A stretch of 64,000 bases of DNA from Phyllosticta citribraziliensis (GCF_038025025.1 NW_027117348.1:620001-684000), one strand, 5' to 3'; shown: positions 54,783 through 64,000, counted from the first letter of the stretch. A program made the numbers and translations. The notes: generated by a model not told the origin, from the letters alone.

Positions 54783-55482
54783 GGGAGCATTTTGGTTTCT
54801 TTGGCGAGCATTAGCAAGCATTTGAGCGCGTGCACGCAAGGCGCTGGGAGTTATGAGGCAGGCATCTGAGTGTCCTGGCGTTGATTGATGGAGCATTCTT
54901 GGACTTGTTATTTTGCTGATTGGGTTCTGATTCGCAGTCTTCGGTTGCCTTTTTAGTGGCATGGTCATCCCCTTTGAGGTCAATCTTATACCCTGTGGTC
55001 AAAGGCACTTCATTAAGCTTGCGGCTTGTTTTCCTTTCAATTCTGACAGCATCTCGGTGAATACAACTTTGTCAACTGTCATCTTTCGCATTGCCCCTGA
55101 AAAAAGCGATACCCCTGAAAGTGGCCTTCCGCTCCAGCAACACCACACCAATGACATCACCCCCTTCAACCCCGGAGTTTCCCCGGGTACTGCCATCCCC
55201 TAACGCGGCAGCAAAGGCGGTGAGCAGCTGTTCAGTCGGATAATCAATCGTCCGCAGGCCTTGGCTTCGTGAGGCCCTCTGAGCCTGGACCAATGGAGCC
55301 ATTGCCGTTCCAAGCTCAAGTGGATTCCAAGCTCACCTTCCTTCATCAGACAGTCCTGACCTTCAATCCTTCCTGGCTGTACCACCTCGCCATGGTCCCG
55401 TGATTGCGCCCGGCAGTACGACTCGAACCGCAACTTTGCCGAACCTGGGAGCTTAGCGTAGCTCAAGCACCTGAAACCCGCC

Positions 55483-58121
55483 ATGTCCCAACCGCCGCCC
55501 TCGACCTCAGCACCGCGGACCGACGAACCCGACCCCAGAAACAGCCTTCGACACGTCCTGGCTGATCCGCCGCCGCCTGAAGCTTCCGACATGCCCACGC
55601 CCGTCAAACCCGAGGCTCCTCCCAGCCAGGCCGACGAGCAAGACACGGTCGACGAATCCAGAGGAAAAGGCAAGGCCCCCGAAGACGGTCCCATGTACAC
55701 TTCAACCACGACCACGACGCGACGCAACGCTAACGGCAGCGTGTCGTCGGTCTACTCAGGGAACAAGATTAGACACCTCAAGAAGGATGACGGCGTGCCG
55801 TTGTGGAGAAAGGACATCCAGTATGACTTTCTCAAGGCCGTCTTCGACGACCAGAAGCGCGTTTTCCACAAGGTGTCGGACGGCACGTCGGGACACACGT
55901 TTGCCGACATCTATCTCGATGCCATGGCGAAGAGCAGCAAGTGCAGCAAGATCTTGAAGGACAAGCTGTTGACGGAGCGGTCGGCGGCCATCAACATGGC
56001 CATGGTCTGCTTGCTAGTCAATGTCGGCAGGATGAACACTACTCTCAACTGTGAGCATGGCGCTTACCGGCTTGGAGACGATTGCTGACCTGCCCAGTCT
56101 TCCCCGAGATGCGTGCACAGCTCCGGACGTACCACTCGATTCCATCTCTTCAAGCGCATCAGGACCCGAACGCATACAAGCAACTGCAAGATGCTCCCCG
56201 CCTCAAGTCGATCCTCAAGGGCGCCACCGAGGACACGCAGCAGCCGAGTACGATTGAAGAAATCAAGGCCACGCCCGTCCCGCGTACGAACCCCGTGAAC
56301 CTCATCTTCGTTCTTGCGCAGTATGCCCCCAAGATTTCCGAGATCCACTTCTTCCCACCGAGAGACTTTTTCGACTTGGTCATGCGGAGCGGGTTAAGCT
56401 CGAAGAGCAGGGCGCGGGCGTTTCTGTGGTTGATGTGGTATTATTTGGAGAGCAACTTCTCGGAGCACGACGCGTTGAACAACCCCTTTGGCGAAGGCAT
56501 GCCGGGCGTCTCGGGAGATGCCACGAATTTCTTGCCGATCAAGACGCCGTGCTTCGACTACTTGACGCCGGAGGAGGAGGCCCTAGAAAACGTAGACACG
56601 GAGGAAGAAAAGGCGTACGGAGAGGAGAAGCGCAAGGAGCGGGCGGCCATTCTTGCCAGCGACACGGCGCCTGTGGTGACGGGCCCGAAGCGAGGCATCA
56701 AAAAAGGCTTCACAAACAACCCCGTCTTTTCCGTGGCCTCCGACGACGGTTCCCTCACACCTGGCCGCGAGCACCATTCACCAGCACCCGGATCGTTCAG
56801 AGCAAGCGGCCGTTCCAAGCCACCGCTCAAGGCATTGCAGGCAGACTACGGCTCCGACACGGACCGCACACGCTCGGCCAGCCCGCCCAGCATCGCCGGC
56901 TACCCTACTCGAATCACCCCTCACATGCGCATCAACAACCTCCTCAACGACGAAGCACCTAGCACTCCTGCTGCACCAACTCCACCTGCCAAAGGACCCG
57001 GTCGTGGCAATTGGGGACCTCGCAACAAGGGCACTCCCTCGACTACTGCAAGCGGCCGCAACGCGTTCAAATCTGCCCTCGACGCATCTGCTGCTCTCGC
57101 AGGCGCTGGTCCTCACGGTTTCTACCTCCCGCTCAACGGCGCCGATCCCAGCATCAATCGCAAGCGTCCTCCCACTGCGCATCAAATGGCCGTGGAACAG
57201 CATCGCAAGAAGCAGGTCGACTACATCCTCGACCGCAAAATCCGTAAGCAGCATGAACAAGCCACGAAGAAGCGCGAGTACGAAGGCGCCATCGCGCGCA
57301 CCTGGAAGCGCCTCAAGATGATGCCTGACGGCTACGACAGCGAGGAGGAGTACTACGGTGCTGCGCTGGCGGCCGCTGAGAATGGCGTGGTTCTCGACTA
57401 CCCAGGCCCCACCCGCAAGCCCGTTCTCGAAGCTCCCAAGTTCGCCGGTCTATACCCTGTCCAGAGCCGCGCTGAACCTGACGACTGCGGTGAGGAAATG
57501 GGCCACTGGGCGCGCGTCTTCCGTCAGACGGGACGTCGTCTCGACCGCTGGGAGGGCAATGGCGAGCCTGCCGTCAAGAAGCAGCGCAAGGACCCCGACG
57601 ACTTTGAAGGCAGCCTCGATAACAGCGCTGGCAACTCGTTTGATCACCAACACCCCTCGGCTCTCCACCGCGCCCCGCATGATCTCGTCTGGGTTGGTGA
57701 AGATGCAGCTGCCGGCGGTCCCACCTCTGGAACTCCCCGCGGCGTCGGACGTGGCCGTGGTCGCCGTAAGAAGGCACCCACCGCCTCTACTCGCGGTGGA
57801 CGTCGTCAGCGCCAGAATGGCTTGCAGGGAGAAGGACGCAGCAACGCTCGCGCCGCCGTCCCGCCACCGATCCAACCCCTGATGCACGACACCGAGGCCG
57901 CCGAGGCCGAGGTCGACAGCCAGCCCGGTGAAAGCAGCGCCGTTGGCGTCGAGGACGTCGACATTGAAGACCACGAGGGAGGCGCCGATGACGACGTCGA
58001 AGACGAAGAGATGGAGGAGGCGGGCGCCGAGGCCGATGTCGAAGGCGAGATGGATGAAGAGGCCGAGGGCGACGATGGCGGAGATGGAAGCTCTGAAGAT
58101 GAGGATATGGAGGGTGCTTGA
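55483..58121 (+). CDS. IES1: INO80 complex subunit Ies1; intron 56051-56097
   Basis: HLKKDDGVPLWRKDIQYDFL, SSKCSKILKDKL, CLLVNVGRMNTTLNF|FPEMRAQLRTYHSIPSLQ, KQLQDAPRLKSILK, ENVDT. Confidence 0.9.
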
Positions 58122-59021
58122 ACGAGTGAGACGTGAGACGTGGTTGACCGGCTGCGGCATGCATACACGGACGGGTGGGTTTTGCTTCTCTTCTTCTTCT
58201 TCGAAGGCAACGACGTTAGGTCTGTCTTCTTTGCTTTGGCATGGCGTGCACGGATGGACGGACGGACGGACGGACGGATGACGAGAGCGCTTGCTTGATC
58301 GACGAACGGGTGGCTTGCTGGGATTGATTGGTGCACTACGGCTGCTGGAATCGCTTGACTGGGCGTGCAACGGGATGGCGTTTTGCTCAAGGGCTTGCTT
58401 GCTTGCTTGCTCGATTGCTTCTTCCCCTTTCTCTTCTCTTCTCCTTCGTCTCCATCATCTTGATCAAAATGGGGTCAAATACCCCTGCCTCTCTCGAGTT
58501 TCTCCTTCGTTGCTTGCTTTACTTTGCGTGCGTGCTTGCGTGCCAGCGTCCTTTCTTTCTTGATTCACCTGTCTTCTTTGCAGTCTGAGCGGGAGCATTC
58601 ATGGCGTGCGTTGCTCGGCACAGCGTTGTTGCTACGTGTAGGAGATGGGGTGCGGTGTTGAGTCGAGTGGCTAAAGATATGATGATGCATGAATCACTAC
58701 ACGTATGTCTTATCTCGTGTCTTTGCGTTGTTCGCCTGTCGCCGTGTCATCAGAAGCAAGCCAAGCAAGCAGCGCGCGTGTGGTTTTGTTTGTTGCTATC
58801 TTTTGTGGTAAGTCTACCTGTGTTCATGACTGGACTCTACTAACGTTGTGCAGGCACTGTTCAGGAAACCAGAGTTTGAAAATCCAAACACCGCATCGTT
58901 TACGCTCGCTGTCGGTCGCTAGCTCGCCCGCTCACTCTTCAATTCAATTCAACACAAAAACATCCCATCTCACTCCAGCCGGCGCTCTTCAGAGAGGAAG
59001 GCAGGAAAGGCAGAAAAGCGT

Positions 59022-60965
59022 CTAGACTTGCGCGCCAGGGCCAAGAGAGAATGGTAGTCGCAGAACATCGTACCGGATCTCTGCAAAGCTTCGGTCTGGT
59101 TCGATGGGCCGGCCGATTCCGGCGGCCAAATGTTGCGTGAGGTGTTCTAACTTTGAATTCCCTTGAGGCTGCCCGTGCCCGCGGTAACCGGTCCCGGTGT
59201 CATCGAGGTGTCGTAGGTCTACTGGGCCACTGGTGATGATGAACATCAAGGTCTCACAAAGCTTTGCAACCTTGGGAACGGAACCAGGCCACCAAATCTT
59301 CAGGCCTGGCCTTTTTGCAAAGGACTCTGGGACTGTGGCAATTCTTCCTGCCGCAATCGGGATGCCGGTCTCGCCTCGACTAGAGATCAAGGCAACTTTG
59401 CCTGTATGACTGATATTGAAGACAGAGACGTAAATTTTGTTGTCGTCGCAGCGATTTTCGATGGACAGGTGAATTTTGTCGCCGTCGCTGACAACGGCAC
59501 TACCATCGATTGGCAGGGCTTCGCCCTCATATAATCCAAATTTGATCTCAACAGGAGCGTCTAATGCCTCTGAGCCACTGCCTTGCTCAAGGGTGAGCAT
59601 ATGATGCCCTCGAGCAAGCGTCTCGGCACTTCCGACGACCTCCGTTATCTCGGTTCTTCCGTCGCTAAGCAGAACTCCTGCTCTGTCGTACGCACGAAGC
59701 TTTCCATGCTCTCGAGCAAATCGCACCAAGGGACTCTCGGGATCCTGTGGGGAACTCGGTCGGAGATATTTCGAGCTCCTGACAAGCGCCTCCACTTCTT
59801 CGTCTTTTTCTGGACACGATGCTGGCCACCGGTACAGAGCTTCGACATCGAGGAAGGCCAACGCTCCACGGTATGGAACAGGCAGCTCATCAGTGAATTC
59901 GACTTGGCTCGAGACAGCATCGATGCTGAGGACCTTGGCTCGACACAGTCGAGCGGTTTCGTCGGGCTGCTCGAAGCCGGGGGGCATGATGATGTAAACG
60001 TTTCCTTCTTTCACGCCCGCGAGCCTCCCAGCTTGAATGGTAGGGCGTTCGTTGATTCCTCTCGCTCCAAGGACCGGGTGAGACACTGCATTGCTGATCT
60101 CTGTTGAGAAGAGAAAGCGCTTGGCAGGGCCTTCGACATGCGGATGCTGCTGCGGAAACTCGGCGTTGACAAGTTCGCGAACTCTGAAAAGAGCGGTCCT
60201 CCACGACACGCTCTGGGCGGCCGGATCTCGAAGGACGCCCATCAATTGTTTTGTCAGGACGCCGACGTACTGTCCTTCCTCGTCCTTGTACTCGAATGCT
60301 GATTCCGCCGTCGCCGCAGCCGCAAGACGCACCGCATGCGGGTTCCCATTGGTGTGCGTTTCTCCCTCGAGCTGGCCCTGCTTCCGAAGGCGATCCACAT
60401 GCTCCTCCAGCCGTTCGTATGTGACCGGAGGCCAGCCTTTTGGTTTGGCATCTGGGTGGAGTGGATCGCGTGCCATGCGGCCTGAGTGGCAGCAATCCAG
60501 GATCACAGTGACGTTGTGAGTCTGCTTCGTGGTTCGGGAGAGGAGATGCGCAATCTGTATGTCCATGATTCCGTTGAAATTGCGCCTTGTGCACTCAAAA
60601 TTGTAGGGAACAAGGTATTGGTACTCGCGCCGGTTGTCCAGGCCGATTTCATCGCGTGCGGTGTCACGACTGCGGGGCGGCGGCTTCACCAGGCCGCCGT
60701 GCCCCGAGAAATATATGACGACCGCCGGCATGTTGACGGTGTTGGTGCTTTGAGCGCCTTCAAGTCTTGAGACGAGCGAGTTCCATGCTCCGAGAATCCC
60801 TTCTTGAGTTGCGGCTTCTCCGTAACATGGGATGATTTCGAATCCCCTGCGCGTTAGCTCACCCTCCACTAGTCGGGCATCGTTCAAAGGTCCTTTCAGG
60901 CCGCCCCACGGACTTGCAATCAACAAGGCAAGTTTGAAAGCGTTTTCCTCGCCGGTGGTCACCAT
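59022..60965 (-). CDS. Caspase-family (peptidase C14) protein with a C-terminal beta-rich extension, 647 aa, intronless
   Basis: ALLIAS..LKGPLNDA, catalytic YFSGHGG and ILDCCHSG, LAAAATAESAFE, GVLTKQL, QHPHVEG; C-terminal DGDKIHLSIEN..IYVSVFNISHTGKV resembles DUF4384-type domains. Confidence 0.92.
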   Translation of the reverse strand: MVTTGEENAFKLALLIASPWGGLKGPLNDARLVEGELTRRGFEIIPCYGEAATQEGILGAWNSLVSRLEGAQSTNTVNMPAVVIYFSGHGGLVKPPPRSRDTARDEIGLDNRREYQYLVPYNFECTRRNFNGIMDIQIAHLLSRTTKQTHNVTVILDCCHSGRMARDPLHPDAKPKGWPPVTYERLEEHVDRLRKQGQLEGETHTNGNPHAVRLAAAATAESAFEYKDEEGQYVGVLTKQLMGVLRDPAAQSVSWRTALFRVRELVNAEFPQQHPHVEGPAKRFLFSTEISNAVSHPVLGARGINERPTIQAGRLAGVKEGNVYIIMPPGFEQPDETARLCRAKVLSIDAVSSQVEFTDELPVPYRGALAFLDVEALYRWPASCPEKDEEVEALVRSSKYLRPSSPQDPESPLVRFAREHGKLRAYDRAGVLLSDGRTEITEVVGSAETLARGHHMLTLEQGSGSEALDAPVEIKFGLYEGEALPIDGSAVVSDGDKIHLSIENRCDDNKIYVSVFNISHTGKVALISSRGETGIPIAAGRIATVPESFAKRPGLKIWWPGSVPKVAKLCETLMFIITSGPVDLRHLDDTGTGYRGHGQPQGNSKLEHLTQHLAAGIGRPIEPDRSFAEIRYDVLRLPFSLGPGAQV

Positions 60966-61545
60966 GATTTCTTCAGAAGATCGAATTGCGAAAACTGACG
61001 TGAAAAAGAGACTGCATGATGAGATTTGAGAATCACGACGTTCAAGGTAGGAGACGGCTCGTCCATTCTGGTGAGACTCTCGCTGACACTTGATGGATGA
61101 CAGTGGCGCAAGCGATTCAATCCACATTCGGGAATGATTGCATTGTGTTACACTGCTGAAGATAGGTTGCGACCGTCGTGCAAGGCTGGCGAATCAGTGA
61201 CTGGCTGATTGTAGCTGAGTGACGGTCCGTCTGAGTAAGTGGCTGATGTAGGAGATAGCTAAATGCCTGGTCAATTGACTTTGACCGGTCTTAACTTGAC
61301 TTCCCTATCCACTTGAACCCTGAAGGTTGTCAAGCGTCGTCAGATCAGGCTGAGACAAGGCAAAGCTTTACTTAATTCCTCCTTGCGCAGCCTTCAGCTC
61401 TACCACATGATCCACAGGCAGCCATGCGATGATCTGGGCCAGTATACCTCAGCTTTGCAAGCTCCCAGCAACACAAGTTCCTCGGAAATTTCGGACATCC
61501 CCCTTCCGTGGAAAACACACTTATACTCAAACCACCCAGGAAACC

Positions 61546-64000
61546 ATGGTATGTCCACCCAACTGCAGCTTTTCCAGCCAACTCACGTCCACAATTAGGC
61601 CTCAATGGAAGAGTTCGAAGACCGGGCCATGGCACTCCTTGTCAAAATCACCACTGTGGACGAGAACGACCACCAGTTACAGCCAATTCTCTACCACGAA
61701 CTTGAACACGTCCGCTGGGAACAGTTCCTCTTGAGCAAAGACGTGGAATATCTGGACGAGGCAATTGCAGCCGTACGGGAAGCGCTGAGAACTGCTCCTT
61801 CTGGCAGTCTACGACGACGAGGATATTCTGCCTGTCTCGCTGGCAAGGTATGCTTCAAGGACTCTCTCGTTGCCATCGCAAGCGAGGAGTCGTCCAAAGG
61901 GGCTTCTATTACTTCTACAACCACCCGTCAGCGACAGACGCAAATTGAAGAGTCAGATGAGCTCTTCCGACGAGTCTCAAAGCCCCGAGTCGTCCGAATT
62001 TCGGCTTGCCCCCCCAAACGACGTCCTATATTCCAAATTGCTGTAGCTCAGTGGCTGTTCCAGCGAAGTATAGAGAGTGGATGTGAACGCATCTTGGACA
62101 AGGCAGCCAGCCTGGCCAGAACCACACTGGAGTCGGCTTCCGGAGAAGAAACCCGCGAATCCCTGGGAATCGTCTACCAGCGAATCCTGACATACAAATA
62201 CTTTCGTTACGGCCCAATGGGCCTATATGACGCAATCACGCTGGGCTACAAACACGCAGAGGCAGTGGCTTGTTACGGTCCGAAATTCGTTGCGGCTCTC
62301 TTCTACGACGGATTGGAAAATGTTAGGCACCTGCAAGAACGGATCACGGTCGTAAAAATACTCGACCGAGGCAATTTGCATCAAAACAAATATACGGCGA
62401 GCGGAGGTCTCGCTATTCTCGACCTCGCAATCAAATCGTACGAGACGATTCCAGATGATGTGTCAGAGGCAAGGCTGTTAGGTTTGAAATGTCAAAGCCT
62501 CGCCATCTGCTACTCACTGCGACATCAAGCCAATGCATGCCGAGGAGATCTCGAGAAGGCGCTAACTATGGGAGCAATGGCCAGAAAGTTGATTCCAAAC
62601 AACGACCCCGAACAGAGTAGGACTCTGTACACTCTCGGGAAATCGCGCGCAATGCTGCACTTTTGTACCAGCAAGGTTGAGCATGTAGACGAAGCAATCA
62701 TACTTTTCGAGGAGGCCGTGAAATTTGAGAAGGCAGATCCTGTTAAGCGAGCATTCTATGCAGGTGGTCTTGCTGGCGCCCTCCGTCTACGATACACTCT
62801 ACTCGATGACACTAAAGACTTGGAGGCTGCGGGAAAATGGGTGATGGAGGCCATGGGTCCGAGTGAAGGCGAATCCGACAATATGTCGATACTTCTGATG
62901 GTGCATGGAACCATTCTGTTCGACCGTCACCGCAAAACCGGCGATATTGACGACCTAAACCTTGCGATACAAAAGATTTCCAGAGCAAAGGAGCTATTTC
63001 CTGAAGGGCACTTTTTGTTTGCTCAGGCTTGTTTAAACTTTGGTTGGCCATACATGTGGAAGTTCCGAAGAACAGGACACGCCGACGACCTCGAAAAAGC
63101 TGTCGAATCGTTTCGACAGGCAGAGAAATCTTCACAGGGAAAAACTGCTCCTGATCCTGAAACATCGTTCGCATTTTCAAAGGGGCTTTTCATACAGTAC
63201 CAGACAACCAAAGACAGTGAGACTCTCGAAGAAAGCATCTCAATTCTACAGGAGGCGATATCGTCGATACCGACAGACTATACTTGGACACCAATTCTGA
63301 TGACCGAGCTTGGACATCGATTTTTCTATCGCTACAAGTCTATGTCTAACCCGTCTGACCTCGATGTAGCAGTTTCATATGCCGAGGGGGGGCTGAAAAT
63401 ATTTGGCAAAACACATTACCATTGGGGGCTCACTGCTCAACTCCTCTCCACCATGCTCTTTCAAAGAGCGGCAATTCTTTCAAGCCACAATGAAGCAGCG
63501 AAGTCCCAGCAGTTAGTACTGGAAATTGCAAAGAACACGGCTGTCCCACCCTGGCTCAGAGTACAAGCTGTAAGCACAGCAATCCACGGGTTTCGGAATT
63601 CAAACAAGCAGTTCCTACAGAGGCACGACGAGCTTGCCCGGCTTGCCCTCGATCTCCTCCCATACGCTTGCAGCCGCGAGCTGAGCCGCGAAGACCAGCA
63701 AGAAGCGGTGAAGCTCATCGAATTCTTTGCTGCCGACAGCTGTTCCTTGGCAATCCGACTCGGAAACTTCCCAGAAGCTCTCCACAGAGTCGAGTACGGC
63801 CGCGGATTGGTCTTGGGTCACTTGATCGACAGGCAAGACGACCTCGCGGACTTGAAGGAGACACACCCAGACCTGGCTCAACGCTACGAGAGACTTCGCC
63901 ACGAATCTACCAGCGAGCTTGAGGCCGAGAAGCTGAGCAAAGAATGGGAATTTCTGATGAAAGACAAGAGAAAGGCTCAAGCGAAGTTGCGGCAGTGCGA
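61546..64000 (+). CDS. TPR-repeat protein of the TPR-CHAT type, 3'-truncated by the window; ATG-only first exon, intron 61549-61598, open frame 61599 to window end
   Basis: Manual translation shows ~800 codons with no stop; repeats such as RKTGDIDDLNLAIQKISRAKELFPEGH and RRTGHADDLEKAVESFRQA; linker ALDLLPYACSRELSREDQ..AADSCSLAI..EALHRVEYGRGLVLGHLIDRQDDLADLKETHPDLAQRYERLR, typical of the region just before CHAT domains. Confidence 0.85.

Follow-up and report, generated by a model that had tools for sequence, protein, structure and literature searches.

In the type III-B CRISPR-CBASS (cyclic-oligonucleotide-based antiphage signaling system) hybrid of Haliangium ochraceum, which comprises genes for SAVED-CHAT, a sigma factor, PCi, a Ser/Thr kinase, and PCaspase, the CHAT protease cleaves and activates PCaspase, PCaspase degrades the sigma factor, the inhibitor, and casein, and the abortive phenotype requires both proteases, according to Steens et al. 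(bioRxiv 10.1101/2023.06.23.546230). In a later preprint, PCaspase is ranked with the protease-associated effector modules that are most abundant in prokaryotes; the part available makes no mention of fungi. Clave et al. 2022 (PMC8851545) report that a Podospora TPR-CHAT protein cleaves a gasdermin encoded next to it and that known fungal protease/effector pairs are het loci (HET-Q1/HET-Q2). Here, we describe a CHAT protease gene and a divergently oriented caspase-like gene in a 64,000-nt stretch of the Phyllosticta citribraziliensis genome (GCF_038025025.1 NW_027117348.1:620001-684000), the whole of which is referred to below as the window. It has long been asked whether fungi run caspase-type death cascades; the evidence implicating metacaspases is no more than loose, and pore formers are the end point of the fungal death pathways defined in recent years. 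By analogy with the bacterial system, the most probable account of the pair is that of a conserved functional module, a fungal TPR-sensor counterpart of the CHAT-to-PCaspase initiator/executioner cascade. The statement that the pair is a single functional module is far more secure than the cascade reading as a whole.

The two genes encode a CHAT protease and a caspase-like protease

The window ORF (open reading frame) call returned a minus-strand longest ORF of 701 aa (59022 to 61127) and a plus-strand ORF of 798 aa (61605 to 63998), which is still open, without a stop, at the window end. The caspase reading frame most likely starts at the Met of MVTT (60965), where the Lasiodiplodia homolog P0011 begins, giving a protein of 647 aa; P0011 shows no conservation of the 54 residues by which the longest ORF is extended at its N terminus. 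With this start, 639 bp separate the start codons of the head-to-head genes (478 bp between the longest ORFs), which replaces the spacing of 580 bp given by an earlier, sequence-only reading of the window. The same reading had noted the lack of a stop in the long plus-strand ORF and had expected a CHAT domain downstream, and both points were borne out. The domain falls past the window edge and is known from database protein P0001 (1234 aa), the window's own full-length product (100% identical over 798 aa), in which Pfam CHAT (PF12770) covers residues 921-1233 (E 1.6e-32) with the motifs ILHFACHG and LVYLSACST. Both residues of the dyad H1087/C1140 are invariant in family alignments of 44 and 42 sequences. 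A Lasiodiplodia protein shares 57% identity with the CHAT part, and the few full-length word-based matches of the repeat region are mostly bacterial (22-27% identical). TPR_10 is present in 22 of the 42 relatives aligned along this region, and a language-model feature lead (Atlas) also points to TPR_10 clusters (score 0.95). Support for the label TPR is thus indirect and comes from the relatives, not from the window copy or P0001. Of the NTPase domains of NLR/STAND receptors (NACHT, NB-ARC, or AAA_16), P0001 has none at E <= 1; AAA domains occur in some relatives (L011, L002).

The minus-strand product matches Pfam Peptidase_C14 (PF00656; caspase/metacaspase, clan CD; E 5.8e-13, 49.5 bits vs a cut-off of 21.4). 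Across 45 aligned relatives, C158 and C159 are invariant, as are G88 and G90, and H89 is retained in at least 90%. Among the matches listed, the nearest relative with a species name is Lasiodiplodia theobromae LTHEOB_779 (54% identical). An AlphaFold2 model computed from the family alignment (predicted local distance difference test [pLDDT], 83.8; predicted template modeling score [pTM], 0.84) has the caspase-hemoglobinase fold. Foldseek matched its N-terminal 290 residues to metacaspases 9 and 4 at the top (E 2e-9), then to GSU0716 and MALT1 caspase-Ig3, with caspase-1/-11 further down the list; a PDB sequence search with profile A1 returned metacaspases and GSU0716 only and no PCaspase entry. 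Type I metacaspases (Mca1/Yca1) carry an N-terminal Pro/Gln-rich or zinc-finger prodomain. The caspase domain of the window protein begins at about residue 10 of 647, with no such prodomain, and is followed by a 356-aa C-terminal region, the two features by which the sequence-only reading had set it apart from Mca1. The main low-confidence part of the model is the loop after the catalytic Cys (residues ~150-180; block pLDDT, 58-65). It matches the inter-subunit linker of caspases in position and, as far as the model indicates, may be a candidate activation-cleavage site.

Folded alone by AlphaFold2, the C-terminal region (residues 292-647) reached a pLDDT of 91.5. Its small beta-barrel is followed by a middle beta segment, then by a long helix, and finally by a beta-sandwich of Ig-like/macroglobulin-like type. 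Foldseek gave no PDB match for it at E <= 1e-3. VIA-align assigned a Z of 10.4 to the barrel (residues 3-83 of the region, over 75 residues) and of 8-8.9 to the sandwich (residues 175-356); as these matches are generic small-barrel and Ig-like folds only, no enzymatic or pore-forming fold is indicated. DUF4384 (PF14326), which the sequence-only reading had named as a family to look for, stayed below its cut-off (16.6 bits vs 27; E 0.0084; residues 202-256 of the C-terminal piece), and the fold at that place is a generic Ig-like sandwich. A profile of the region retrieved 4604 cluster representatives at E <= 1e-3 and 642 at E <= 1e-30. It starts nearly always at residue 265-290 of the matching proteins, and Peptidase_C14 precedes it in 19 of 20 proteins scanned. 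Some family members are fused to further domains, namely, a C-terminal patatin-like phospholipase in P0034 and P0095 (Fusarium oxysporum and F. solani) and TPR_10 repeats in P0313; a large length class of ~830-860 aa has an additional C-terminal stretch of ~200 aa without annotation.

The pair is conserved in fungi

Adjacent locus tags were found in L. theobromae, where LTHEOB_779 (caspase) and LTHEOB_780 (CHAT) share a 1,452,024-bp contig, and in Fusarium lateritium (ACHAPT_005535 and ACHAPT_005534), whereas in Diaporthe eres the two genes are two tags apart (LA080_015259 and LA080_015261); in each species both lie on one contig. Ten of the 119 CHAT relatives listed come from a contig of exactly the same length as that of one of the 120 caspase relatives listed; these pairs include Lindgomyces, Stipitochalara, Neopestalotiopsis, and a second Lasiodiplodia pair. 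In Aspergillus niger, the 1542-aa model P0191 is a complete CHAT protein running into a caspase protein, which places the two genes in tandem there.

A metagenome scan with the caspase family alignment (best 80 of 320 relatives; 79 loci) extended these observations. A CHAT ORF occurs in 8 of the 17 fungal-clade loci and in 6 of the 7 with at least 5 kb on both sides (5 of 6 minus one duplicate). The exception, L002, has a truncated TPR-linker remnant upstream and an AAA-TPR ORF running off the contig end, in the architecture of the AAA-TPR-CHAT gene at the syntenic locus L011. TPR ORFs are cut by contig ends in L010, L001, and L007, and every fungal-clade metagenome locus with enough flank has a CHAT or TPR-type neighbor. 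Four near-identical, probably fungal loci that lie outside the tree (L019 group) carry a tail-to-tail TPR-CHAT gene. The genes are head-to-head in the window and in L008, L012, L014, and L058, tail-to-tail in L013 and L019, in tandem in L017 and A. niger, and separated by one intervening gene in L011 and L002. Since the orientation varies, linkage rather than a shared promoter is the conserved feature. Copy number also varies: L012:1424-11819 has one CHAT gene head-to-head with two tandem caspase paralogs, and L017:9968-20092 has one caspase followed by two TPR-CHAT genes.

The sequence-only reading had pointed to a possible effector nearby. No gasdermin ORF lies in window positions 55000-64000, which cover one flank of the pair, and no gasdermin, HeLo, HET, or patatin neighbor was detected at E <= 1e-5 among 39 of 82 longer ORFs scanned at nine related fungal loci, a survey that intron-bearing genes and fungal gasdermins may escape.

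Homologous pairs in bacteria and their relation to SAVED-CHAT clusters

Species-representative genomes were scanned for relatives matching the fungal caspase protein over its whole length, and the best 80 of 337 were analyzed. They come from Actinomycetota, Myxococcota, Chloroflexota, Acidobacteriota, Planctomycetota, and Pseudomonadota. CHAT ORFs were found by an iterated hidden Markov model (HMM) search followed by a Pfam check, with 18 caspase ORFs removed. Pfam identified 22 of 29 new HMM ORFs as CHAT, 2 as Peptidase_C14, and 1 as Trypsin/AAA/TPR and assigned no family to the other 4; the nonconfirmed HMM ORFs and three short ones were dropped before counting. A CHAT ORF was present in 61 of the 80 loci and, within 10 kb, in 53 of the 61 loci with full flanks, in agreement with the expectation that the pairing would be found elsewhere. 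The nearest CHAT ORF lies at most 1.5 kb away in 40 loci, on the same strand in 33 of these, and Pfam confirmed CHAT in 40 of 41 nearest ORFs scanned. Most of these neighbors have the architecture of the window gene, i.e., a C-terminal CHAT domain behind 500-900 residues that are unannotated or TPR. The background in five of these genomes is 75 CHAT matches per 49.7 Mb, or ~3% per 22 kb. In the same five genomes, a CHAT match lies within 10 kb of 6 of 9 C-terminal-region profile matches and of 5 of 6 full-length matches.

ORFs of at least 200 aa within 6 kb were clustered all against all. Two further neighbors recur in the bacterial loci. These are an AAA_16-TPR-GerE (MalT/LuxR-type) protein in 32 loci (e.g., L045:6511-9615) and an unannotated protein of ~380 aa in 21 (e.g., L138:12740-13879), often between the caspase and CHAT genes in Micromonospora-type loci; genes for WD40 proteins and LCAT-like lipases are less frequent. 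At a Dactylosporangium locus, a 1782-aa frame (L103:3945-9290) with Trypsin_2, a CHAT-like stretch (58 bits), AAA_16/NACHT-like, and TPR_10 segments adjoins a partial copy of the caspase C-terminal region. It resembles a receptor of the STAND type that carries two protease domains.

In the Myxococcota loci, sigma-70 and Pkinase-TPR genes precede the caspase family member. Among 401 Polyangia genomes, 49 have SAVED, and in 3 of these 49 the C-terminal-region profile matches 5.5-6.6 kb downstream of SAVED on the same strand. The order at these three loci is SAVED and CHAT in one ORF, sigma-70/ECF, small ORFs, Pkinase-TPR, and Peptidase_C14 (610-729 aa), followed by a SMODS cyclase in one locus and a bacterial HORMA gene in another. 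These loci thus have the set of genes that Steens et al. describe. BLASTP aligned residues 13-579 and 13-601 of the window caspase with two of the SAVED-CHAT-cluster caspases (26% and 25% identity; E 1e-38 and 8e-34). Because the alignments span ~570-590 residues, the fungal caspase is an end-to-end homolog of PCaspase-type proteins. In one SAVED-CHAT-cluster caspase (L160:7252-9081), DCCFSE replaces DCCHSG, so the bacterial branch admits variation at the position behind the catalytic Cys.

Phylogeny of the caspase-like proteins

In the caspase tree, one clade of 47 rows (support 100) unites the window protein, all 28 fungal proteins from named species, and 14 metagenome loci, apart from 109 bacterial rows. 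Within it, the window caspase is placed beside Lasiodiplodia. A small clade of L049, L050, L065, and P0124 (GC 0.52-0.59) is sister to the fungal clade and has no CHAT ORF in the flanks present. The sequence-only reading had considered horizontal acquisition possible; as a recent event, it is not supported, given the single fungal clade, the fungal housekeeping flanks, and the small shift in G+C content at third codon positions (GC3). If the genes ever passed between the domains of life, in either direction, they would have done so long ago.

Gene structures and neighboring genes

Contigs from two public sequencing runs (X1 and X2) of two studies were compared with the window. They show three short GT..AG-bounded skips (56050>56098, 61044>61102, and 61547>61598), the pattern that would be expected of spliced mRNA. 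Contigs are colinear with the caspase coding sequence (CDS) over 59273-60894 (X1) and 58314-60306 (X2); the CHAT ORF is matched in the same way from 61598 onward, as far as the window reaches. Contigs of X2 leave 60786-61360 bare, and the CHAT-side contig of that run begins at 61361, which fits two divergent transcripts. The joint 61547>61598 (cut +1) is common to both runs and removes 50 nt (61549-61598). Immediately 5' of this intron sits ATG 61546, in good context; splicing joins it in frame to the annotated Met 61605, adding M-A-S. ATG 61546 is thus the probable true start codon of the CHAT gene, which is therefore probably not strictly intronless. Two more ATGs lie in the leader, one out of frame (61407) and one in frame after splicing (61429; +~42 residues), and position 61605 is the start in the database model. 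This arrangement of ATGs, with an intron right behind ATG 61546, may reflect translational control or a mis-set start. A contig found in X1 only (60926-62576) contains a second plus-strand GT..AG skip at ~61047-61103 and overlaps the initial 40 nt of the caspase CDS in antisense; it may represent either an isoform of the CHAT gene with a long 5' leader or an antisense transcript in its own right. The features of the locus are compiled in Table 1.

Table 1. Coordinates of the features of the CHAT/caspase locus within the window
Feature	Position	Strand	Description and evidence
Caspase-like protein CDS	59022..60965	-	647 aa + stop, no intron; ORF, comparison with P0011, Pfam, AlphaFold2 (pLDDT 83.8, pTM 0.84), colinear contigs
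Peptidase_C14 domain	60096..60938	-	Residues ~10-290, without N-terminal prodomain; Pfam, Foldseek, PDB sequence profile
SGHG motif, catalytic His89	60696..60707	-	Sequence and alignment of 45 relatives
DCCHSG motif, catalytic Cys (C158/C159)	60480..60497	-	Sequence and alignment of 45 relatives
C-terminal region of the caspase-like protein	59025..60092	-	Residues 292-647; AlphaFold2 pLDDT 91.5, VIA-align
Divergent intergenic stretch	60966..61545	.	Presumed bidirectional promoter and CHAT-gene 5' leader; upstream ATGs 61407, 61429
CHAT-gene start and intron	61546..61598	+	ATG 61546-61548 (ACCATGG), 50-nt intron 61549-61598 (GTATGT..TTAG); contig joint in X1 and X2
CHAT sensor-protease gene, codons 1-798 of the 1234-aa product	61605..64000	+	Helical-repeat (degenerate TPR_10-type) region and linker; CHAT domain beyond the window

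The contigs bear out the description of the caspase gene as intronless, and the SGHG and DCCHSG motifs bear out that of its dyad as intact; as to coexpression, splice-bearing contigs cover both genes in the two runs. The caspase gene is probably misannotated in the source assembly, where the database model P0009 (59022-60242) holds only the final 406 aa, without the entire caspase domain. GC3 is 0.596 in the caspase gene and 0.544 in the CHAT ORF, compared with 0.604-0.870 in the Pfam-supported genes of the window; the proposed preference for A/T-ending codons is therefore present, but the shift is modest. The neighbors, which encode a histone deacetylase, Pex2/12, Mdm31/32, and EH-domain and UBX proteins, are housekeeping genes of an ordinary fungal kind. 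At lower coordinates, a 47-nt GT..AG skip (56051-56097) bridges the plus-strand ORFs 55483-56088 and 56109-58121 in both X1 and X2, which makes them one gene. The product ends in an acidic tail and matches no Pfam family at E <= 1e-5.

Proposed mechanism and alternative explanations

In the cascade reading that we favor, the CHAT gene (61546/61605 to beyond 64000; 1234 aa) would encode the sensor/initiator, with a ~800-aa helical-repeat (TPR_10-type) region ahead of the C-terminal CHAT domain, and the caspase gene (59022-60965; 647 aa) would encode an executioner zymogen composed of Peptidase_C14 (H89/C159), beta-barrel, and Ig-like beta-sandwich. The repeat region would keep CHAT inactive until a trigger, probably a non-self or danger cue, binds or drives oligomerization. 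Active CHAT would then cut the neighbor-encoded caspase, with the disordered loop right behind the catalytic Cys as the most likely site, and the freed caspase would cleave many cellular proteins, so that the affected hyphal compartment would die in a regulated manner or stop growing. Cleavage direction, activation step, trigger, and outcome are inferred by analogy with the bacterial cascade of Steens et al. and with the fungal TPR-CHAT protein that cuts gasdermin (Clave et al.). In bacteria, a protease cascade that kills the cell has been proven for this kind of pairing, and such a cascade is therefore probable in filamentous fungi as well. The sensor-protease plus effector-protease module proposed in the sequence-only reading accordingly stands as regards the CHAT domain, the conserved pairing, and the cover of both genes by splice-bearing contigs, the three points on which that reading could have been refuted, and as regards the bacterial precedent; the cascade itself follows by analogy, and shared promoter control is not conserved.

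Several observations, besides this reliance on analogy, weigh against the cascade. No Pfam family was found for the window's 798 aa at E <= 0.01 and no TPR family for P0001 at E <= 1. The link to PCaspase rests on genomes with the same cluster type rather than on the H. ochraceum PCaspase sequence itself. Orientation and spacing differ among the fungal loci; eight of the 61 fully flanked bacterial loci have no CHAT ORF, nor do L049 and L050 of the sister group of the fungal clade, within flanks of 2.1 kb and 10 kb. The caspase tree (160 rows) is a FastTree reconstruction with local support values only, and neither sequencing run is on record as RNA.

Four other explanations were weighed against the cascade. 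That the genes are chance neighbors with no functional link is barely credible: ascomycetes do have many CHAT genes (330 relatives at E <= 1e-3), but the two genes are found together in several fungal classes and bacterial phyla, much more often than the ~3% background would give, and the linkage counts contradict such a coincidence. Nearly as improbable is a recently transferred bacterial island in a fungal chromosome. The GC3 values of both genes, at the low end of the window genes, the mostly bacterial full-length matches of the repeat region, and the bacterial homologs in at least five phyla would suit an island. However, the window caspase falls next to Lasiodiplodia inside the clade that holds all 28 fungi and not among the bacterial rows, the CHAT part is close to a Lasiodiplodia protein as well, the 5' end of the CHAT gene has a spliceosomal-type intron, and the flanks are fungal housekeeping genes.

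A different wiring of a true module is unlikely, albeit the likeliest of the four alternatives. The caspase, via its beta-sandwich, might be a sensor or adaptor that activates TPR-CHAT or is scaffolded by it, or the two proteases might have a common third substrate, unlinked to them, that they attack in parallel. The resemblance of the C-terminal region to binding-type domains (Ig/macroglobulin-like), the fold match to MALT1, a caspase-Ig protein that is both scaffold and protease, the fungal loci with two CHAT genes (L017) or two caspases (L012), and the patatin fusions of some caspase homologs (P0034, P0095) are compatible with this wiring. Against it, CHAT is upstream in both tested systems (SAVED-CHAT cuts PCaspase, and TPR-CHAT cuts gasdermin), the sensor-type repeats belong to the CHAT protein, and the caspase dyad is intact throughout the family. 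Less likely still is a role in allorecognition (heterokaryon incompatibility) or development instead of pathogen defense, which would make the locus a polymorphic het-type one. It bears on biological role rather than mechanism, and it draws on the het-locus nature of the known fungal protease/effector pairs and on the patchy, multicopy distribution of the family in fungi. The window locus, however, lies among housekeeping genes, and the bacterial relatives adjoin CBASS and CRISPR-type defense genes (SMODS, HORMA).

Significance and comparison with known systems

The CHAT-to-PCaspase relationship in prokaryotes and TPR-CHAT two-gene clusters in fungi are already known. No earlier report of a conserved fungal pair of TPR-CHAT and PCaspase-type (C14) genes was found in the accessible parts of the open full-text literature, including PMC8851545, PMC12881547, PMC10197012, PMC8195603, and two preprints (subscription papers and supplements lay outside the scope), and the fungal cell-death papers and reviews among these (including PMC8851545) describe, in the same parts, gasdermins as the only partners of CHAT. 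Tentatively, and with somewhat less assurance than for the module at hand, we extend the cascade reading to filamentous ascomycetes in general, which may possess a true two-tier caspase-type cascade sharing common ancestry with the bacterial antiphage module, in which TPR-CHAT initiators would switch on PCaspase-type executioners proteolytically. If true, regulated cell death in fungi would have, in addition to gasdermins and HeLo/MLKL-like pore formers, a third executioner arm, which would also be the first initiator-to-executioner cysteine-protease cascade in a eukaryote outside animals. A cascade that works in fungi would add CHAT-to-PCaspase to the immune modules shared by bacteria and eukaryotes (gasdermins, NLR-like receptors, TIR, and cGAS-STING) and would give the initiator/executioner logic of animal apoptosis an independent, older counterpart. 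The locus offers a concrete, widely conserved, and testable pair, with a predicted activator next door and a bacterial homolog of the pairing whose biochemistry is known, and it suggests a likely role for a large protein family without described function, that of the 4604 cluster representatives.

Of the proteins with known structures, metacaspases (Mca1/Yca1, AtMC4/AtMC9) and MALT1 share the caspase-hemoglobinase fold and the His/Cys dyad with the window caspase and are its best structural and PDB sequence matches; the MALT1 paracaspase has, in addition, an Ig-like domain behind the caspase domain. The window protein differs from them in lacking a Pro/Gln-rich or zinc-finger prodomain, in its long C-terminal region, and in its linkage to CHAT. 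In the type III-E Craspase (Cas7-11 with the TPR-CHAT protein Csx29 cutting Csx30), a TPR-CHAT protease activated by sensing likewise cuts a specific neighbor-encoded protein; here, there is no CRISPR effector, the substrate family is another one, and the relation is at the domain-family level only. Closer in host and layout are the fungal TPR-CHAT/gasdermin clusters (HET-Q2-like, Q2L-6 with Q1-6), which occur in the same fungal subphylum as two-gene clusters with a protein of ~1000-1200 aa that has N-terminal TPR and C-terminal CHAT. The partner in the window is a caspase-type protease and not a pore-forming gasdermin, so the output would be a second proteolytic tier rather than a membrane pore. 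From the SAVED-CHAT/PCaspase system of H. ochraceum, the fungal pair is set apart by its eukaryotic host, by a long TPR-type repeat region instead of SAVED as the sensor, by divergent genes instead of an operon, and by having no cyclic-oligonucleotide synthase, sigma factor, PCi, or kinase gene beside it. Nevertheless, both systems link a CHAT gene to a Peptidase_C14 gene, the window caspase aligns end to end with caspases of clusters of the same type, and the positions of the catalytic His and Cys are similar (H89/C159 here and H79/C146 in the PCaspase of Steens et al.).

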